A DNA stretch of 64,000 bases from an uncultured Candidatus Saccharibacteria bacterium. GTDB taxonomy: Bacteria > Patescibacteriota > Minisyncoccia > Phycocordibacterales > PALSA-1337. The first letter of the stretch is position 1. Each line of letters starts with the position of its first letter. The notes under the pieces were generated by a model, which was not told the origin of the DNA, searched no databases, and saw only the letters and a program-made list of their open reading frames with translations. Where the stretch lies: contig CAYOER010000001.1 in NCBI GenBank assembly GCA_964403205.1, positions 14,037-78,036 on the forward strand. Reading direction: 5' to 3'. This document shows, piece by piece, positions 29,430 through 54,351 of this stretch. The position numbers and the translations under genes were made by a program.

Positions 29430-29873
29430 ATGATAGAAATTACTACAGGTATTGCATTCCTTTTGTCATCTATGTATGGTTCCGGTAATACAATCACTGT
29501 AGCAACAGTCTCACAAAGTGGTGTAGACTCTTCTACAGTAAAAGTAGAGACTGTGAATCTACAAGATCGCAAATCAGTAGAGAAGTATCTCAGAGAACAA
29601 TATTCAGACACTCCTATATTAGTCGATATTGCAAGATGTGAATCCACATTCAGCCAAGTCGATAAAGAAGGGAAGGTTATCCGCGGTAGAGTAAATAGTG
29701 CCGATGTCGGCGTGATGCAAATCAATGAAAAGTATCACTCTGTAAAGGCAGTAGAGCTCGGATATGATCTCCATACTATAGATGGTAATATCGCTTATGC
29801 GAAATATCTCTATGAGAAGTTTGGAGCACAACCATGGAAAGCTTCGTCTAAGTGTTGGTCAAAGAAGGTATAA
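29430..29873 (+). CDS. small secreted transglycosylase-like (SLT/Rpf-type lysozyme-fold) protein
   Basis: A signal peptide, then ARCESTFSQ ... ADVGVMQINEKYH (catalytic E-S plus a GLMQI-like motif). Confidence 0.6.
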   Translation: MIEITTGIAFLLSSMYGSGNTITVATVSQSGVDSSTVKVETVNLQDRKSVEKYLREQYSDTPILVDIARCESTFSQVDKEGKVIRGRVNSADVGVMQINEKYHSVKAVELGYDLHTIDGNIAYAKYLYEKFGAQPWKASSKCWSKKV

Positions 29874-30012
29874 GGGATTGGAAGATTAGATAAAATTAAA
29901 TAAAAAAAGAAATGGCAATCAGAAATGGTTGTCTTTTCTTTTGACTATTCTTAATCTTTATTATAGACTTCTCATAAACCTTGCTCTTCTAACAATCAAC
30001 CCCAATGCTAGA

Positions 30013-30471
30013 GTTATGAATAATCAAGTAAAGCCAATATCTTTTCTGCTACTTCAGAAAGAGTTTCTCTCAGCAATAAAGTCTCAGTGTCACATGCTAG
30101 GTGTGAGGGGCAGTAAAGATCTGTCTGTCAGGACCGGTATCAGTGAGGAGACTGCTACGGTTCTCTATAACTCTGCATATAGCAAAACGCCTATCACAAC
30201 GGTGCTGGTGGTGAATGGTAGGGAATGGGATGATGTTTTTTCCTGCCTCGGTATATCCTGGGCTGTAGTGGTGAATCAAGTATTAGAAATGTCTACAGAC
30301 GAAGCCATTTCCGAGCAGGACATTCTTGTGCCTATTGATACAGAACTTTCCATTTTCGGATACTATACTGCATTCATTCTCAAGGCGAGTATGATTACAC
30401 CCGCTATGATTGGATTTCACGATGGTGACACCAGGACTATGTCCGTCAGTCATCATTTTGGTGAATGGTGA
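30013..30471 (+). CDS. hypothetical protein (G+C-rich islet); start set at MNNQVKP
   Basis: An ORF of about 50% G+C with no recognisable motif. It is followed by a strong terminator at 30498-30530 (accgcgt-catgc-acgcggt plus a T-tract). Confidence 0.45.
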   Translation, partial: VMNNQVKPISFLLLQKEFLSAIKSQCHMLGVRGSKDLSVRTGISEETATVLYNSAYSKTPITTVLVVNGREWDDVFSCLGISWAVVVNQVLEMSTDEAISEQDILVPIDTELSIFGYYTAFILKASMITPAMIGFHDGDTRTMSVSHHFGEW

Positions 30472-30497
30472 ATTCTGAGGTGTGAACAAAAACACGG

Positions 30498-30530
30498 AAC
30501 CGCGTCATGCACGCGGTTTTCTTTTGTTTT
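30498..30530 (+). terminator. rho-independent terminator
   Basis: accgcgt / acgcggt stem followed by ttttcttttgttttt. Confidence 0.7.
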
Positions 30531-30568
30531 TATAATAGATATGATATTTATTGAATAATAACGACTTC

Positions 30569-30597
30569 TTGACATATATAGAAATATAAGTTAGCAT
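30569..30597 (+). promoter_or_regulatory. sigma70-like promoter driving a leaderless short transcript
   Basis: TTGACA (30569-74), a 17-nt spacer, TAGCAT (30592-97). An ATG lies 8 nt downstream of the -10. Confidence 0.45.
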
Positions 30598-30605
30598 ATA
30601 TACAC

Positions 30606-30689
30606 ATGACAAATTTTATCAACAACTTTAATACGTCACCAAATCCTGCACCTAAAGCAGGCTCTCTACGCTGTGTTCCCAGTATTTAA
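30606..30689 (+). other. candidate leaderless 27-codon small ORF (MTNFINNFNTSPNPAPKAGSLRCVPSI) or a ~130-nt sRNA/cis-regulatory leader, with its own terminator, upstream of an ABC exporter
   Basis: An ORF begins at the predicted TSS. An internal hairpin cctgc-acctaaa-gcagg. A terminator at 30714-30737 (acaccgc-gcagat-gcggtgt then tttt). Not in the ORF track because it is under 60 aa. Confidence 0.3.
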
Positions 30690-30713
30690 ACCATAAAACG
30701 TTGAATACCTAAA

Positions 30714-30737
30714 ACACCGCGCAGATGCGGTGTTTTT
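30714..30737 (+). terminator. rho-independent terminator ending the short transcript
   Basis: A 7-bp GC-rich stem with a 6-nt loop followed by tttt. Confidence 0.55.
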
Positions 30738-30801
30738 AGTTCTTTGATTATATTGTTCTTTCTGTTCTTAGACAATTCAAAACTCAACAAAAAGGTTAGA
30801 A

Positions 30802-32574
30802 ATGAAAATAATCGGTAATGACCCGATCAGTTATCTGTTTGGGAAAACGTGGAAGTATTCCGAAGGGAATAGGAAAAAGATAGTTGCGTACTGGCTGTGT
30901 TTCATCACTGCCAACGCTTTCTCTCTCATCACATATCCACTCACATTGTCGGAGTTAATCAATACGGTGCAGTTGCAGGGAATTACGAGCGATAACTTCG
31001 CATATTTATGCATGTTGCTCGCTATACTTCCTCTGACGAACTTCATCTTTTGGTGTTTCCATGGACCAGGTAGATACCTAGAAAGTATGAACAGCTTTCG
31101 CTGTCGGATAAATAAACGCAAACATCTCTTTAAGGGTGTTATGACGCTTCCTATGCAATGGCATGTAGATCATCATTCTGGGGACACAATCAGTAAAGTA
31201 GGAAAGGGCACACAGGCACTTTTCGACTTTTCATCGGAGGCATTTCTTGTCATACGACTAATTGTCATGCTCATCGTCTGTTGTTACATGCTCGCTCGAA
31301 ATAGTATTTCGATTGCACTCATCGTCGCAGGTACGGTACTACTTACTACGTGTATCACGATGTATTTCGATAAGGTCATCATGGCCTATCTCGAAATCTT
31401 GAACAAGCTTGAGAATGAAGCAGCTGCAGAAGTTCAGGATAACATTGGCAATATTGTCACGGTTATTATCCTTCGGGTTGAAAACTTCGTCTATGCTCGA
31501 ATCGGCAAGAAACTTGATGAACCGCTCGCAGTTCAAGGTAAGTATCGAAAAGCAATTGAGATGAAATGGTTTCTTATCAGTATGTCTGGTGTCGTACTTA
31601 CTTCAATGGTACTTCTCTCGTACTTCATCGAGCATCTTGATAGTCCAGAGAAATTGCTTGTCGGAAGTATTGTACTTCTCACACAGTATTTGGATAGACT
31701 TGAAAATGTCTTCTACGACTTTACAAGTATCTACTCCAATATTGTGCAGCAATACACGCAAGTGCAAGACTCGGAAAAACTCACAGAAGAGTTCCGAGAA
31801 AAAAGTTTGCAAAATCATCTTCTGCCGAAGGATTGGAGGGAAATAACAGTCAGAGATCTTAACTTTTCGTATCATCGTGAGAAGAGTCGGGAACAACACC
31901 TTACCAATCTCTCATTTTGGATACGTAGAGGCGAAAAGATCGCCTTTGTCGGTAAAAGTGGAAATGGAAAGTCGACATGCTTTAGTCTGATCATGGCACT
32001 TTACGATGCATTATCGGCTGAAATCTCTGTCGATGGTGTTACTGTTCCGAATGGCTTTGAGGGGATTTGTCGTGATATCGCGCTCGTCCCACAGGCTCCA
32101 GAGATATTTGCTACCACTGTGCGTGAGAATATCACAATGGGAGCAGATGTGAGTGAAGAGACACTTCGTCACTATACAGAGATGGCTTGTCTCACCGATG
32201 TTGTCGAACGCATGCCGAAAAAGTTTGATTCGAAGATTAACGAGAAGGGTGTGAATCTTTCTGTTGGCGAACAACAACGGCTTGCCCTCGCACGAGGATT
32301 GCTAGTCTGTAAAGACAAATCAATCATCTTACTCGATGAGCCTACTAGTAGTCTCGATGCTGTAACTGAATTCCGTGTATATGAAAATGTATTTCGGATC
32401 AAAAATACAGCTGTCATCTCCTCGATTCACCGTTTCAACCTACTACCACTTTTTGACTACATTTATGTATTTGAGAAGGGTAGGATTGTCGCTCATGGAA
32501 CTCTATTAGAACTTCGTAAGCGAAGCTCTGAGTTTCAAGAATTGTACAAGAGTTACGAGAACGCTCAGAAGTAA
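30802..32574 (+). CDS. ABC exporter (fused TMD-NBD) in a G+C-rich islet
   Basis: Walker A GKSGNGKST; signature LSVGEQQRLALARGL; Walker B IILLDEPTS; an N-terminal 6-TM domain. G+C is clearly higher than the backbone. Confidence 0.8.
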   Translation: MKIIGNDPISYLFGKTWKYSEGNRKKIVAYWLCFITANAFSLITYPLTLSELINTVQLQGITSDNFAYLCMLLAILPLTNFIFWCFHGPGRYLESMNSFRCRINKRKHLFKGVMTLPMQWHVDHHSGDTISKVGKGTQALFDFSSEAFLVIRLIVMLIVCCYMLARNSISIALIVAGTVLLTTCITMYFDKVIMAYLEILNKLENEAAAEVQDNIGNIVTVIILRVENFVYARIGKKLDEPLAVQGKYRKAIEMKWFLISMSGVVLTSMVLLSYFIEHLDSPEKLLVGSIVLLTQYLDRLENVFYDFTSIYSNIVQQYTQVQDSEKLTEEFREKSLQNHLLPKDWREITVRDLNFSYHREKSREQHLTNLSFWIRRGEKIAFVGKSGNGKSTCFSLIMALYDALSAEISVDGVTVPNGFEGICRDIALVPQAPEIFATTVRENITMGADVSEETLRHYTEMACLTDVVERMPKKFDSKINEKGVNLSVGEQQRLALARGLLVCKDKSIILLDEPTSSLDAVTEFRVYENVFRIKNTAVISSIHRFNLLPLFDYIYVFEKGRIVAHGTLLELRKRSSEFQELYKSYENAQK

Positions 32575-32593
32575 CCAAGAGCAAACTATCACA

Positions 32594-32627
32594 AGCAGTC
32601 TAGGACAACCTAGGCTGCTTTTTTTTA
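32594..32627 (+). terminator. rho-independent terminator
   Basis: agcagtctagg-acaa-cctaggctgct followed by tttttttt. Confidence 0.7.
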
Positions 32628-32813
32628 ATCACTCATCCCCAACAGGGAATAGAATATAAACTATTCAAATCAAAAGTAATATTTTTTAATAATTTACCGA
32701 AAACAAGAATCCAAGATTTTATTAGTATTATAAACAGGGAACCCCTTACAGCGCTCAATGTAGAGTGTCGCACAATCTTTCTTTTACGATGTGGTTAGTT
32801 TGGTAATCCCCTG

Positions 32814-33131
32814 TTATTGCACCAAATTTGGTTCTGCGAGCTTTGGTGCAAGCTTATCTATATCTGTAGGTTCATTGTTCCCCACTTTCTTTAGATTGTT
32901 CATAGCTGGATACCAAACAATTTTTAGGAATATTTCCTTCCATAGATATGTTACTGGTTTTTTCAAAAATCCATGCCAAGCTTTATAAGCTAATGTTTGA
33001 ACATAATTGAAATTACTCTGCGTCGTAGGTGCCTCTATAGCCTTCCTAATATCGAATCCATAGTATCCGAGTACTATAAGAGCTATTACTATTATTACAA
33101 TCCATTTTATAAAGCCTTGATTTGTTTGCAT
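32814..33131 (-). CDS. small signal-anchored protein; a paralogue (N-terminal module) of the 35839-36342 protein
   Basis: MQTNQGFIKWIVIIVIALIVLGYYGF...EAPT compared with METNQGIKAWQWIVTVIVIIILIVLGYYMF...EAPT. Confidence 0.5.
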   Translation of the reverse strand: MQTNQGFIKWIVIIVIALIVLGYYGFDIRKAIEAPTTQSNFNYVQTLAYKAWHGFLKKPVTYLWKEIFLKIVWYPAMNNLKKVGNNEPTDIDKLAPKLAEPNLVQ

Positions 33132-33208
33132 AAAAATTTTTTATTAATTTAATTATATTATTTATACTTAATATTTTATCATATTTAATAAAAAGGTTTA
33201 TAGGATTT

Positions 33209-34480
33209 TTAGAGATAAGATAGGGGATTCAAATATGCTTTGAGATCAGCTACAGGGACAGTCGCACCCTTGCAATTTTTACTATTCACAAATGTAGTAA
33301 TCTGCACACCTTGGGTAGCATATACACCATAGTGTAGATGTGGACCAGTAGTATAGCCTGTATTGCCACTATAGCCGATTATCTGACCCGTAGAGACTTT
33401 GTCACCCTTTGCAACAGTCTGGAGTGATAGATGAGCATATAGAGTCGATAGACCGTTTATATGTTCTATCATTATCCATTTACCATAGGAATAGCATCCA
33501 GGAACTAGATCGGTATTGGCAACTCCTGTGACAGTACCACTGAGGGAGGCCTTTATCGGTGTACCGACAGAAGCAGCAAAATCTACACCAGTATGACCTT
33601 TACCATTATATATTTGTGGATTCTTCGTAGAGAAAGGTGTATTACCGAAATATTGCGTTATCCTAATATTCAATAATGGCCAAGCGAGTATTCCTGAACC
33701 TGTATGTGGTATAAGACTAGGGTCTATAGCGATTCTCAAGGCGCTTTCATATTCCAACATTTCCCTTTCAAATGCCTCTTTCTGTGCCTTCTTTGAAGCT
33801 AGTATTTTCTTATAATTTGATTCTGTATTTTTTGTAGATTTTAAAAGATTATTTTTCTCTACTGTATTTTCTGCTACTATCTTTTTCTGATTAACTAGAT
33901 CTTTTTCTAATGATAATAATTCGGCTTTTTTTGCTTCCGTCTTTACTTTATTTTCTTCTAGAGAAACTTTTATATCTTTTAATTCAGATATTCTATTTCT
34001 CACACTGCTCTGTAGAGCATTAAGATTATCTGTTTCCTCCCATAATTCTCCAAAGCTTTTTGCTCCTAATATAGTTTCAAATATAGAATTAGACTCTGAT
34101 CTAGATATAGCTCCTAGGGACTGGGATATCACCCTCCTACCGTCTCCTATACGGACATTCTTATCATCTATTTGTAGAGATAACTCCTGTATTTCTAGAT
34201 TTGTAGAAGATATTCTATTTTCTGTAATAGATAGATCTGCCTCCAATTTTTTCTTTGTAAGATCTAGAGATGCTAAAGTATTTTTCAATGAATCTGCTTC
34301 TTTACCCAGGCTTTCTATTTGCCCTTGATATTTCTTTATTTCTTCTTCTAGAGCTTTAATATTATTACCCTTTTCATTTATTTTATTTTTCAATTCATCT
34401 ATTGTCTGTCCATAGGCAGTAGAATATGAAAGAAATATTAGAGTAAATATAAAAAGAATTTTAAATAATTTCATAGGCAA
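33209..34480 (-). CDS. M23/LytM-family peptidoglycan endopeptidase with an N-terminal coiled coil (EnvC-like)
   Basis: A signal peptide, a long coiled coil, and a C-terminal HTGVDFAASVGTPIKA ... HLH M23 motif region. Confidence 0.8.
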   Translation of the reverse strand: MPMKLFKILFIFTLIFLSYSTAYGQTIDELKNKINEKGNNIKALEEEIKKYQGQIESLGKEADSLKNTLASLDLTKKKLEADLSITENRISSTNLEIQELSLQIDDKNVRIGDGRRVISQSLGAISRSESNSIFETILGAKSFGELWEETDNLNALQSSVRNRISELKDIKVSLEENKVKTEAKKAELLSLEKDLVNQKKIVAENTVEKNNLLKSTKNTESNYKKILASKKAQKEAFEREMLEYESALRIAIDPSLIPHTGSGILAWPLLNIRITQYFGNTPFSTKNPQIYNGKGHTGVDFAASVGTPIKASLSGTVTGVANTDLVPGCYSYGKWIMIEHINGLSTLYAHLSLQTVAKGDKVSTGQIIGYSGNTGYTTGPHLHYGVYATQGVQITTFVNSKNCKGATVPVADLKAYLNPLSYL

Positions 34481-40118: not shown

Positions 40119-40598
40119 CTAGCTCGCAATGCCACACATTGCCTGCCGACGCTTCTTGCTATGCCCATTTCTGCCGTTGCGCCCATGGGTGCTATTGGCG
40201 AGAGCGACAATTTCTTCATTTGAAATACCGCCTCGAATTGGAAGGACAAGGGCTGGCTTACATGGAAACCAATCCTCTGCAATCACATCGGATTGCTGAG
40301 TCGGGAAGACTGCATCCTCCACCGGCTTTCTGGCAGTTTTTCCATCGAAACTCTTGCGAGGTCCCCAGATCCAGGCACAGAGTTTGTTGTCTGTACTTCT
40401 ACCGTCTAGGATCAGGACGATCAGATCCCCAGTCTGTGGATGTTCGTCGAGGTGGTTTTCAGTGATCCACCCAGACTCAGTCTCTCTGCAGGAATCGATG
40501 TGGATATAGACTTCGCCTTGGCTGGTATTTTCCAAGCTAGCAAAGCCGAACCCCCGATTTCCGAATCGAGTCACTGTCGCAAACCTAATCTGTGCCAT
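40119..40598 (-). CDS. cold-shock-domain (CSD) protein with a ~100-aa C-terminal extension, in a G+C-rich (about 55%) islet
   Basis: The N-terminal ATVTRFGNRGFGFASLE...GEVYIHID matches the CSD RNP motifs (G.VKWFN..KGFGFI ... DVFVHFS). Confidence 0.6.
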   Translation of the reverse strand: MAQIRFATVTRFGNRGFGFASLENTSQGEVYIHIDSCRETESGWITENHLDEHPQTGDLIVLILDGRSTDNKLCAWIWGPRKSFDGKTARKPVEDAVFPTQQSDVIAEDWFPCKPALVLPIRGGISNEEIVALANSTHGRNGRNGHSKKRRQAMCGIAS

Positions 40599-53219: not shown

Positions 53220-53648
53220 GTGAGGACACTGAACGTAGTGGTAAATGAACTTCGTGAACAAATTGAGGAGGCTACAGATCCCAAGGATCCAAACAAGCTT
53301 CCACAATACACCGCTTCGCTGCGGGATGGTATTGATTCGTTTGTCTCGATGCTCACTGATGACCCGACGATGGCCGCGCTCGCATTCCACAATCAAATCA
53401 GATACGACAATCAGTCGGTTATGATCAAAATTGTGGAACACGACACGGTATCCGGTAGTGATTGGCCGCTTATCAAGCAGTCGATCCAAGTGCGCCCCGA
53501 TGCGCATAAGGCCGTCAAAACCCTTGAACAAGCTGGGCTCGAAGCAGTATTGGCGACCGCTGTGGCCGCCAACTTCAAGCTCACACAACAACGTCGCGCT
53601 CAACGCGAGGCGTTGGAACAAGAAGAGGAGTACCAAAATGTTGAATGA
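53220..53648 (+). CDS. hypothetical protein (G+C-rich cassette gene 2)
   Basis: A 142-aa ORF with no recognised motif. Its stop overlaps the next start (ATGTTGAATGA). Confidence 0.45.
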   Translation: MRTLNVVVNELREQIEEATDPKDPNKLPQYTASLRDGIDSFVSMLTDDPTMAALAFHNQIRYDNQSVMIKIVEHDTVSGSDWPLIKQSIQVRPDAHKAVKTLEQAGLEAVLATAVAANFKLTQQRRAQREALEQEEEYQNVE

Positions 53649-54351
53649 ACAAGACAAAATGAGTGAGCATGAAAAGCTCGTCACCGTACTTCGTTATCAG
53701 GGTGCATTGGCTGTCGAAAGTCAGCTTGTGGATCTTGCCAATAAGGAGGGTGATGAAGCCATTGTGAGAATCGCCGGAAATCTATCTGCTGCCGAAGTTG
53801 CGCAAGTAACTTCTGAGGCAGATATGGTCAGCCCGTCACTTCTGCATACTGCAGTCAATCTCGAACAGTTCCGCGGAGTATTTCGGCGCATAGGCGTTCG
53901 ATGGAGCTCTGCGGAACAAGAGGATTGCTCACCTGAAACACTTCAGGAACTTCAGGATGAACTCAAACAGTTCTTCTGTGCATTCATTCTTCTGAACGAA
54001 GACGGAAAGCGTCGCGTTGAACTGATGAATGTCATTCTGGACGAGCCGCACGGTATCCATGCCCTAGTCTTCAGTGTCGTCCACGAAAAGGACTTTCTTG
54101 AATTCCTAGAATCCAATGGAAGCACTAGTGATGTCGGGGATTGGCGCGAGGTTATTGGGATCTTGCGTAACAACTTTCCCGAACAGTGGGAACGGTTCAA
54201 GAAAATTTTACCGGACTGTTACAACGGTAATGATTACCTCAACTTCATTCATGAGATCGCCGCTGAAATCTATGCGGTAGCCGTGTCTCAAGGAGCCGTC
54301 AGACGAACAGAAGTCGAAAAAGCGGATGATCTATTTATTCCGCTTGAATAG
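53638..54351 (+). CDS. hypothetical protein (G+C-rich cassette gene 3); start set at MLNEQDK
   Basis: A 238-aa ORF. The longer track ORF from 53431 overlaps gene 2 out of frame and is taken as a 5' over-extension. Confidence 0.4.
   Translation: MLNEQDKMSEHEKLVTVLRYQGALAVESQLVDLANKEGDEAIVRIAGNLSAAEVAQVTSEADMVSPSLLHTAVNLEQFRGVFRRIGVRWSSAEQEDCSPETLQELQDELKQFFCAFILLNEDGKRRVELMNVILDEPHGIHALVFSVVHEKDFLEFLESNGSTSDVGDWREVIGILRNNFPEQWERFKKILPDCYNGNDYLNFIHEIAAEIYAVAVSQGAVRRTEVEKADDLFIPLE

Follow-up and report, generated by a model that had tools for sequence, protein, structure and literature searches.

Transcription of the multidrug ATP-binding cassette (ABC) exporter genes bmrCD of Bacillus subtilis is controlled by ribosome-mediated attenuation at the leader gene bmrB. 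In short, efficient translation of bmrB favours termination, and slowing of translation by lincomycin, erythromycin or chloramphenicol favours read-through (PMC4191407). A locus of similar logic was analysed here in a stretch of 64,000 nucleotides (nt) from an uncultured Candidatus Saccharibacteria bacterium (contig CAYOER010000001.1, positions 14,037 to 78,036 of the forward strand), further called the window. At this locus a unit of ∼130 nt, carrying its own promoter, a leaderless open reading frame (ORF) of 27 codons and an intrinsic terminator, precedes the gene of a fused ABC exporter. The unit is probably a ribosome-dependent transcription attenuator, a leader-peptide switch of the BmrB-BmrCD or trp type, for this exporter.

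As in bmrB-bmrCD, a type I ABC exporter is preceded by a short leader ORF with an intrinsic terminator and an antiterminator as the alternative fold, and among the systems compared bmrB-bmrCD was the best match for the three-segment logic of the window. BmrB differs in having 53 codons, a 5′ untranslated region (UTR) of ∼70 nt, a ribosome-binding site and a terminator inside the coding region, whereas the leader in the window is leaderless, counts 27 codons and has its terminator ∼20 nt past the stop codon; the two leaders share no sequence similarity. BmrCD is a heterodimer from a different phylum, whereas a single half-transporter gene is present in the window, and BmrCD was not among the best 60 Protein Data Bank matches of the exporter. 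As far as the sequences go, the resemblance is one of function and not of homology.

The attenuators of the trp, his, leu and phe type are comparable in two respects: mutually exclusive segments 1:2, 2:3 and 3:4 occur in about half of the relatives of the unit, and the leader stop codon is placed such that a terminating ribosome covers segment 2. Unlike in the trp type, the leader has no tandem run of regulatory codons for one amino acid, the gene under control encodes an exporter or an acetyltransferase and is not a biosynthetic operon, and the window copy has no 1:2 pairing. The upstream ORFs (uORFs) of vmlR, msrD and mef/mel and the erm leader peptides likewise consist of a short uORF in which early stalling (codons 1-10) switches a downstream structure. 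For vmlR, a TTNTTT pause motif and a hairpin sequestering the Shine-Dalgarno (SD) sequence were described (PMC9226507); the GTTCTTT boxes of the window fit TTNTTT and can pair with the SD. Unlike the window leader, these uORFs have an SD, control ABC-F factors or methyltransferases and carry other arrest motifs.

A leaderless regulatory small ORF (sORF) as the first cistron is also found in the mycobacterial polycysteine sORFs (bioRxiv 10.1101/834739) and in the leaderless trpL of Sinorhizobium (PMC7298713). Unlike the window leader, these respond to cysteine or tryptophan codons, and the mycobacterial sORFs act via downstream translation or Rho-dependent termination, not via a covarying intrinsic terminator and antiterminator. 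In peptidase-containing ABC transporter (PCAT) systems with double-glycine (GG) peptides, a small ORF adjoins an ABC exporter as well; the window differs from these in having no C39 peptidase domain, GG leader or accessory genes, and in the coupling of the two genes by a terminator and antiterminator. A further system of analogous function is the mycobacterial whiB7 uORF, whose regulon includes efflux pumps and the GNAT acetyltransferase Eis.

Organization of the leader unit

All features given here are located on the forward strand. A sigma-70-type promoter was found at 30569-30597, consisting of a −35 element TTGACA (30569-30574), a 17-nt spacer and a −10 element TAGCAT (30592-30597), together matching the consensus at 10 of 12 positions. 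The leader ORF (30606-30689, stop codon TAA at 30687-30689) encodes MTNFINNFNTSPNPAPKAGSLRCVPSI and has its ATG 8 nt after the −10 element, so that transcription of the leader probably starts at ∼30604-30606. Inside the ORF, an internal hairpin, CCUGC-ACCUAAA-GCAGG (30645-30661; −6.9 kcal/mol), is followed by strand A, the 5′ strand of the antiterminator. Strand A, CGCUGUGUU (30669-30677), corresponds to codons 22-24 (R-C-V) and pairs with 30713-30721. Stacked within the antiterminator helix is a hairpin containing the stop codon (30682-30708), in which GUAUUUAA (30682-30689) pairs with UUGAAUAC (30701-30708).

The intrinsic terminator of the leader (30711-30737) begins 21 nt past the leader stop codon and consists of arm B, AAAACACCGCG (30711-30721), the loop CAGA, arm C, UGCGGUGUUUU (30726-30736), and a U-tract; its stem counts 11 bp, with an energy of −13.9 kcal/mol. 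Three GTTCTT(T) boxes, starting at 30739, 30755 and 30764 (30739-30769), come next, and an A/C-rich tract then runs to the SD of the exporter, AAAGG (30791-30795). The exporter gene (30802-32574; 590 amino acids, aa) has its ATG 65 nt after the leader terminator. Promoter, ATG spacing, 27-codon ORF, terminator and exporter were each found where the first-pass annotation had placed them. When both strands of the whole window were searched for a promoter, an ATG within 6-10 nt, a short ORF and a terminator, the leader unit was the sole match.

Conservation of the unit across Patescibacteria

Upstream regions were read at 80 genomic loci encoding orthologues of the exporter. The same layout was present at 34 of these, giving 35 loci with the window included. 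These loci have in common a TTGACx −35 element, a (TGn)TAnnnT −10 element and a start codon 7-11 nt after the −10 (mode 9 nt, in 22 of 35). An equivalent promoter at the same spacing to the start codon was present at the 34 related loci, and the leaderless start proposed on first inspection of the window is thereby backed by comparison. The leader ORF ranged from 26 to 47 codons, the terminator followed 18-47 nt past the leader stop codon and the exporter began 30-103 nt beyond the terminator.

A covariance model, R1, was built from the 3′ half of 30 leaders (alignment A2). At E < 1e-6, R1 matched 34 of the 80 loci, always directly upstream of the exporter, and gave one match in the window. 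The association with an ABC exporter, on which the first-pass annotation had drawn, thus recurs in dozens of related loci. Metagenome contigs were scanned with a bare 19-base motif, GCGCTGTGTTNNNAGTATTTRA, a search blind to the downstream gene. Among the 19 matches, 11 were full elements as judged by R1: six before an exporter, four before a gene for a GNAT acetyltransferase and one cut by a contig end. Seven of the 19 were rejected as chance matches, lying inside unrelated sequence and giving no match to the covariance model.

At the four loci with GNAT genes (L087:1182-1885; L090, reverse, model 1183-1274; L092, 2482-2568, reverse; L095, 9007-9089, reverse), the leader scored 66-78 bits with R1. 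The downstream protein counts ∼200 aa and belongs to PF13302 (Acetyltransf_3), with weak best NCBIfam matches to PseH, SpeG, AAC(6′) and RimJ. Because some copies precede this gene, the leader is a portable regulatory module and not an exporter-specific partner; a GNAT behind the same leader is as expected for such a module. Together, ABC exporter and GNAT point to a small regulon with a shared signal.

Other exporter orthologues (L015, L020, L023 and L046; also L010, L026 and L035) were preceded by leaders of the same logic and different sequence. In one such group, leaders of 44-47 codons end in ..IFDFQ.. and have a covarying antiterminator of their own; another group may have a structured 5′ UTR. 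The leader sequence evolves fast and the architecture is kept. In addition, an unrelated unit of the same design was seen at L026:1450-1640, with the promoter TTGACA-17-TAAAAT, an ATG 7 nt on, a 26-codon ORF encoding MQIKIARYKRYYKVYRTNFWGNFCVL, a terminator and a 323-aa gene. Attenuators built on a leaderless leader ORF may be a general mode of regulation in these genomes.

Pairing of the terminator and antiterminator

In alignment A2, the terminator was 93% paired, with compensatory changes at 6 of 11 pairs. The antiterminator (30669-30677 : 30713-30721) was 90% paired, with compensatory changes at 7 of 11 pairs, and in controls with a slid partner its pairing dropped to 34-54% in all cases. 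RNAalifold, run without a hint, returned the antiterminator as the consensus, 13 of its 19 pairs being compensatory. In sequences with AACAUCGUGCC in the terminator, the upstream strand is GGCAUGAUGUU and the peptide carries HDV instead of RCV; since this strand change covaries with the terminator, codons 22-24 are dictated by the RNA. The proposal of the first-pass annotation that the terminator serves attenuation is thus strengthened by a terminator and an antiterminator that both covary.

Pairing of strand A with strand B was the minimum-energy fold in 33 of 35 transcripts ending before strand C, and about two thirds of the full-length transcripts folded as the terminator. For the window, the two energies were near-equal (terminator −13.9 vs antiterminator −13.5 kcal/mol). 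A ribosome that has reached the end of the ORF would cover strand A, which is located 10-18 nt upstream of the stop codon. Masking of a ribosome footprint at the stop codon of the window sequence gave the terminator, and masking at codon 9-10 gave the antiterminator, both as predicted folds that speak to geometry.

The stop-codon hairpin was 90% paired. Its sequence, GUAUUUAA...UUGAAUAC, was more conserved than pairing needs, and the last two codons were usually AGU AUU (Ser-Ile). One possibility is that the Ser-Ile/stop context makes termination slow, holding the ribosome on the antiterminator strand. Most relatives also have a hairpin just upstream of the antiterminator strand, with differing sequences (mean z −1.4; window z −2.6); in the window this is the internal hairpin at 30645-30661, possibly a pause or timing hairpin. 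The fold z-score of the unit was −3.0.

Pairing of segment 1 (ORF nt 5-20) with strand A was tested by comparing per-sequence duplex energies with those of shuffles; a test in fixed register was abandoned, as subtypes differ in register by 1 nt. This 1:2 pairing reached −12 to −25 kcal/mol with z ≤ −2.3 at 18 of 34 loci. According to these predicted energies, about half of the relatives are trp-like four-segment attenuators and the window copy is a three-segment version.

Downstream of the terminator, GTTCTT(T) boxes were found 43 times in 34 leaders vs 0.6 expected. The box often precedes GAC-TTCACA and an A/C-rich tract and accompanies the leader whichever gene follows. It fits the TTNTTT NusG pause motif, which was described for Bacillus and Mycobacterium (PMC9226507). 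The GTTCTTT box can pair with the downstream SD but did so in only 11 of 34 minimum-energy folds, with weak energies.

Putative translation of the leader ORF

The first-pass annotation had let the reality of the small gene depend on its conservation in homologous loci; in these it was indeed retained as an ORF, and the N-terminus of the peptide follows the motif M-[KTI]-[NK]-hydrophobic-x-x-[QK]-hydrophobic-N. Residues 4 and 8 are hydrophobic by way of different codons, and Q/K7 and N9 are conserved. The third codon position was the most variable in codons 3, 4, 5, 7 and 8. Over the same stretches of 34 non-redundant loci, frames +1 and +2 contained 90 and 78 stop codons, and the leaders of close relatives differed by whole codons (26, 35, 37, 45 and 46 codons). 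Of 30 sequences, 21 had TAA and 9 had TGA as the stop triplet inside the hairpin; the middle base of this triplet was only A or G, never a pyrimidine, and covaried with a partner U or C (AU 21, GC 7, GU 2). These patterns, together with the leaderless spacing, are indirect signs that the leader ORF may be translated. Selection may act on the peptide or on the codons, since segment 1:2 pairing fails to explain Asn9 and the hydrophobic residues 4 and 8.

A model for ribosome-dependent attenuation

Promoter, leader ORF, intrinsic terminator and exporter gene follow each other in this order on one strand, an antiterminator exclusive of that terminator is available and, as far as geometry is concerned, the position of the ribosome is able to decide between the folds. 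The switch would then operate as follows. With transcription starting 0-2 nt before the AUG, a ribosome would load on the 5′ end of the leaderless mRNA, without an SD. As the polymerase advances, strand A would pair with strand B, with the stop hairpin stacked inside; the antiterminator would thus form first and block the terminator. During smooth translation up to the stop codon, the ribosome would unwind and cover both strand A and the stop hairpin's 5′ arm, and strand B, freed in this way, would pair with strand C to form the terminator, keeping the exporter off. If the ribosome were delayed or stalled earlier in the ORF, A:B would persist, the polymerase would read through and the exporter would be made. 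In this model it is the position of the ribosome that would set the fold. Lacking 1:2 pairing, the window copy should act like bmrB, with termination upon translation and read-through upon slowing.

As to the signal, the leading guess is a general or antibiotic-induced slowing of translation, by analogy with bmrB-bmrCD. Slowed translation is put first because there is experimental precedent and because the genes under control encode an efflux-type ABC pump and a GNAT, the latter with SpeG, AAC(6′) and RimJ-type enzymes among its weak best matches. A bolder proposal, which we regard as doubtful, is that the N-terminal nonapeptide is a drug- or metabolite-dependent arrest peptide, stalling the ribosome at codon 9-10 as in the Erm leaders. 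The leader would in that case be specialized in sensing a single class of translation poisons, coordinating ABC export with acetylation by a RimL/SpeG-like GNAT, each gene having its own copy of the leaderless switch and the GTTCTTT boxes serving as NusG-type pause sites. If true, this would amount to a phylum-wide chemical-defence regulon in ultra-small episymbionts, readable directly from sequence.

Several points weigh against ribosome-dependent attenuation. Much of the similarity between the peptides is forced by RNA pairing: the C-terminal RCV or HDV comes from strand A, the A..AG stretch stems from the internal hairpin, and the K/N/T-rich N-terminus arises since nt 5-20 mimic the 5′ arm of the terminator. 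Because the RNA dictates so much, peptide conservation alone is no proof of translation. No run of one codon is present in the leader, and a U-C mismatch occurs in the antiterminator of 18 of the 30 sequences. The model also requires that transcription and translation are closely coupled. Finally, the window copy has no 1:2 pairing (−1.8 kcal/mol, z +1.1, the worst of 34) and may, on the predicted folds, read through constitutively when it is not translated.

Alternative explanations

The same attenuator could respond to a shortage of charged tRNA-Asn, with asparagine (Asn) codons as the regulatory codons and inhibitors of aminoacyl-tRNA synthesis as a possible trigger. Asn accounted for 16% of codons 2-16, compared with 5.9% in the proteins of the window, a 2.7-fold enrichment, and recurred at position 9 in 34 of 43 leaders, at position 3 in 20 and at position 13 in 12. 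In the window, codon 9 (AAU) and the A that follows occupy 30630-30633. A ribosome stalled at these codons would cover region 1, and the alternative regulated gene is an Acetyltransf_3 GNAT. The Acetyltransf_3 family includes RimL/MccE enzymes, which acetylate toxic aminoacyl-nucleotides. However, a tandem run of Asn codons as in classic attenuators is missing, an A-rich region 1 mimicking strand B itself favours AAU, AAC and AAA, and neither regulated gene serves Asn supply. A response to tRNA-Asn is accordingly considered unlikely.

An RNA-only switch, that is a riboswitch or a leader bound by a protein or a tRNA in which the ORF is incidental, would account for covarying helices inside the ORF, for the low fold z-score and for a stop hairpin conserved beyond the needs of pairing. 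No Rfam match at E ≤ 10 was obtained for the unit itself, and a search of 29800-33300 against Rfam 15 on both strands gave only three chance-level matches (E 3.3-4.4), driven by terminators and far below the gathering scores; a known riboswitch or small RNA (sRNA) family, which the first-pass annotation had allowed for, was thus not matched. A scan for tRNA and tmRNA found nothing. The distance from the 5′ end to strand A varies from ∼60 to 120 nt with no conserved unpaired core, whereas the ORF, its frame, its stop codon and the leaderless start were kept in 35 of 35 loci. The same features were present in 9 of the 11 new copies, those in which a leader ORF was readable (L088 and L096 gave none). 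We therefore hold an RNA-only switch to be quite unlikely. The earlier suggestion of a riboswitch or sRNA leader controlling the exporter stands as regards a controlling leader and falls as regards a riboswitch, there being no conserved aptamer core.

Action in trans, by the terminated ∼130-nt transcript as an sRNA or by the peptide, would be compatible with a function in cis. The unit has its own promoter and terminator, and rnTrpL/peTrpL provide a precedent (PMC6614838, PMC7298713). Still, no candidate target was found and the cis switch explains every conserved feature, so that an additional role in trans is judged very unlikely.

That the small gene encodes a secreted peptide, exported by the adjacent ABC transporter, is hardly credible: the small ORF does adjoin an ABC exporter, as the first-pass annotation had stressed in proposing a pheromone, bacteriocin or ribosomally synthesized and post-translationally modified peptide (RiPP) locus, but the exporter lacks a C39 peptidase domain and the peptide a double-glycine (GG) leader or GA cleavage motif, genes for modification, immunity or sensing were not seen among the neighbours in the window, neither peptide length (26-47 residues) nor core is conserved, the same leader precedes a cytoplasmic acetyltransferase at four independent loci, the covarying antiterminator overlaps the 3′ end of the ORF, and RNA pairing dictates much of what the peptides share.

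The exporter, its neighbours and the G+C-rich islet

Domain scans of the exporter returned ABC_membrane (PF00664) and ABC_tran (PF00005), identifying it as an ABCB-like half-transporter made up of a transmembrane domain and an ATPase; no C39 domain was detected, the 590-aa protein starting directly with the transmembrane domain. No specific NCBIfam cutoff was reached and the nearest solved relatives were generic ABCB/ABCC exporters. All homologues were from Patescibacteria (Paceibacteria, Zambryskibacteria, Taylorbacteria and others), with at most 52% identity. Leader and exporter are flanked by terminators at 30496-30520, ending the upstream ORFan, and at 32593-32620, found in the terminator scan and ending the exporter transcript. 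The former was scored on both strands and could for that reason also stop antisense transcription; minus-strand promoter-like sites were seen at 30612-30583 and 30775-30747. The neighbours of the unit in the window encode the ribosomal proteins L9 and L27, an SLT-like protein, the ORFan, an M23 peptidase and GltX, and no modification enzyme is among them. None of these neighbours was found at any of the 80 related loci, and as no related locus shares a neighbour, insertion was neither shown nor excluded by synteny.

The ORFan (30019-30471, forward strand; 150 aa), which has its own terminator at 30496-30520, resembles the exporter in G+C content. G+C was 0.435 for the ORFan and 0.421 for the exporter, with 0.43 and 0.44 at third codon positions (GC3), against gene means in the window of 0.338 and 0.26 ± 0.08 (z ∼ +2.1 to +2.2); the two ranked third and fourth of 56 ORFs. 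Higher values still (G+C 0.49-0.52, GC3 0.52-0.53) were seen at 40119-40598 on the reverse strand and 53431-54351 on the forward strand, which may be other acquired genes or not genes. The segment had been called compositionally foreign in the first-pass annotation. The shift in composition is real (GC3 z ∼ +2), though not the extreme of the window; a foreign origin is unproven, because the exporter homologues are all from Patescibacteria at ≤52% identity and homologues of the ORFan were not found. The segment may plausibly have been acquired from another Patescibacterium, though this is unproven.

Among 5.8 billion proteins, the ORFan matched only itself, an exact look-up of its twin in the database returned no record, and no match was found in Pfam, NCBIfam, PHROGs or PADLOC. 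It was absent from all related loci and is not part of the conserved module. A single-sequence AlphaFold2 model had a predicted local distance difference test (pLDDT) score of 41, with only three N-terminal helices predicted (residues 9-54, pLDDT 57-70) and the remainder unmodelled, which was too poor for a structure search. A likeness of this N-terminus to a helix-turn-helix, seen by eye only, was discarded as nothing supports it. The ORFan is a putative gene without an SD; a promoter-like site was seen at 29941-29969.

Significance for Patescibacteria

Leader-peptide attenuators, including leaderless ones and ones located before ABC exporters, are already well known, and since the kind of mechanism is familiar, the surprise is moderate. 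For the present leader family, no description in Patescibacteria was found in the searchable literature and no Rfam family exists. Most Patescibacteria (Candidate Phyla Radiation) have not been cultured, and their gene regulation is almost entirely unexplored. The module described here is conserved and can be read from sequence, by its leaderless leader ORF, its covarying antiterminator and terminator and its downstream box. It offers a testable handle, and the covariance model is available for annotating Patescibacteria genomes. That its small regulon comprises an ABC exporter and a GNAT suggests that translation stress or antibiotics are sensed in these reduced cells via the ribosome itself.

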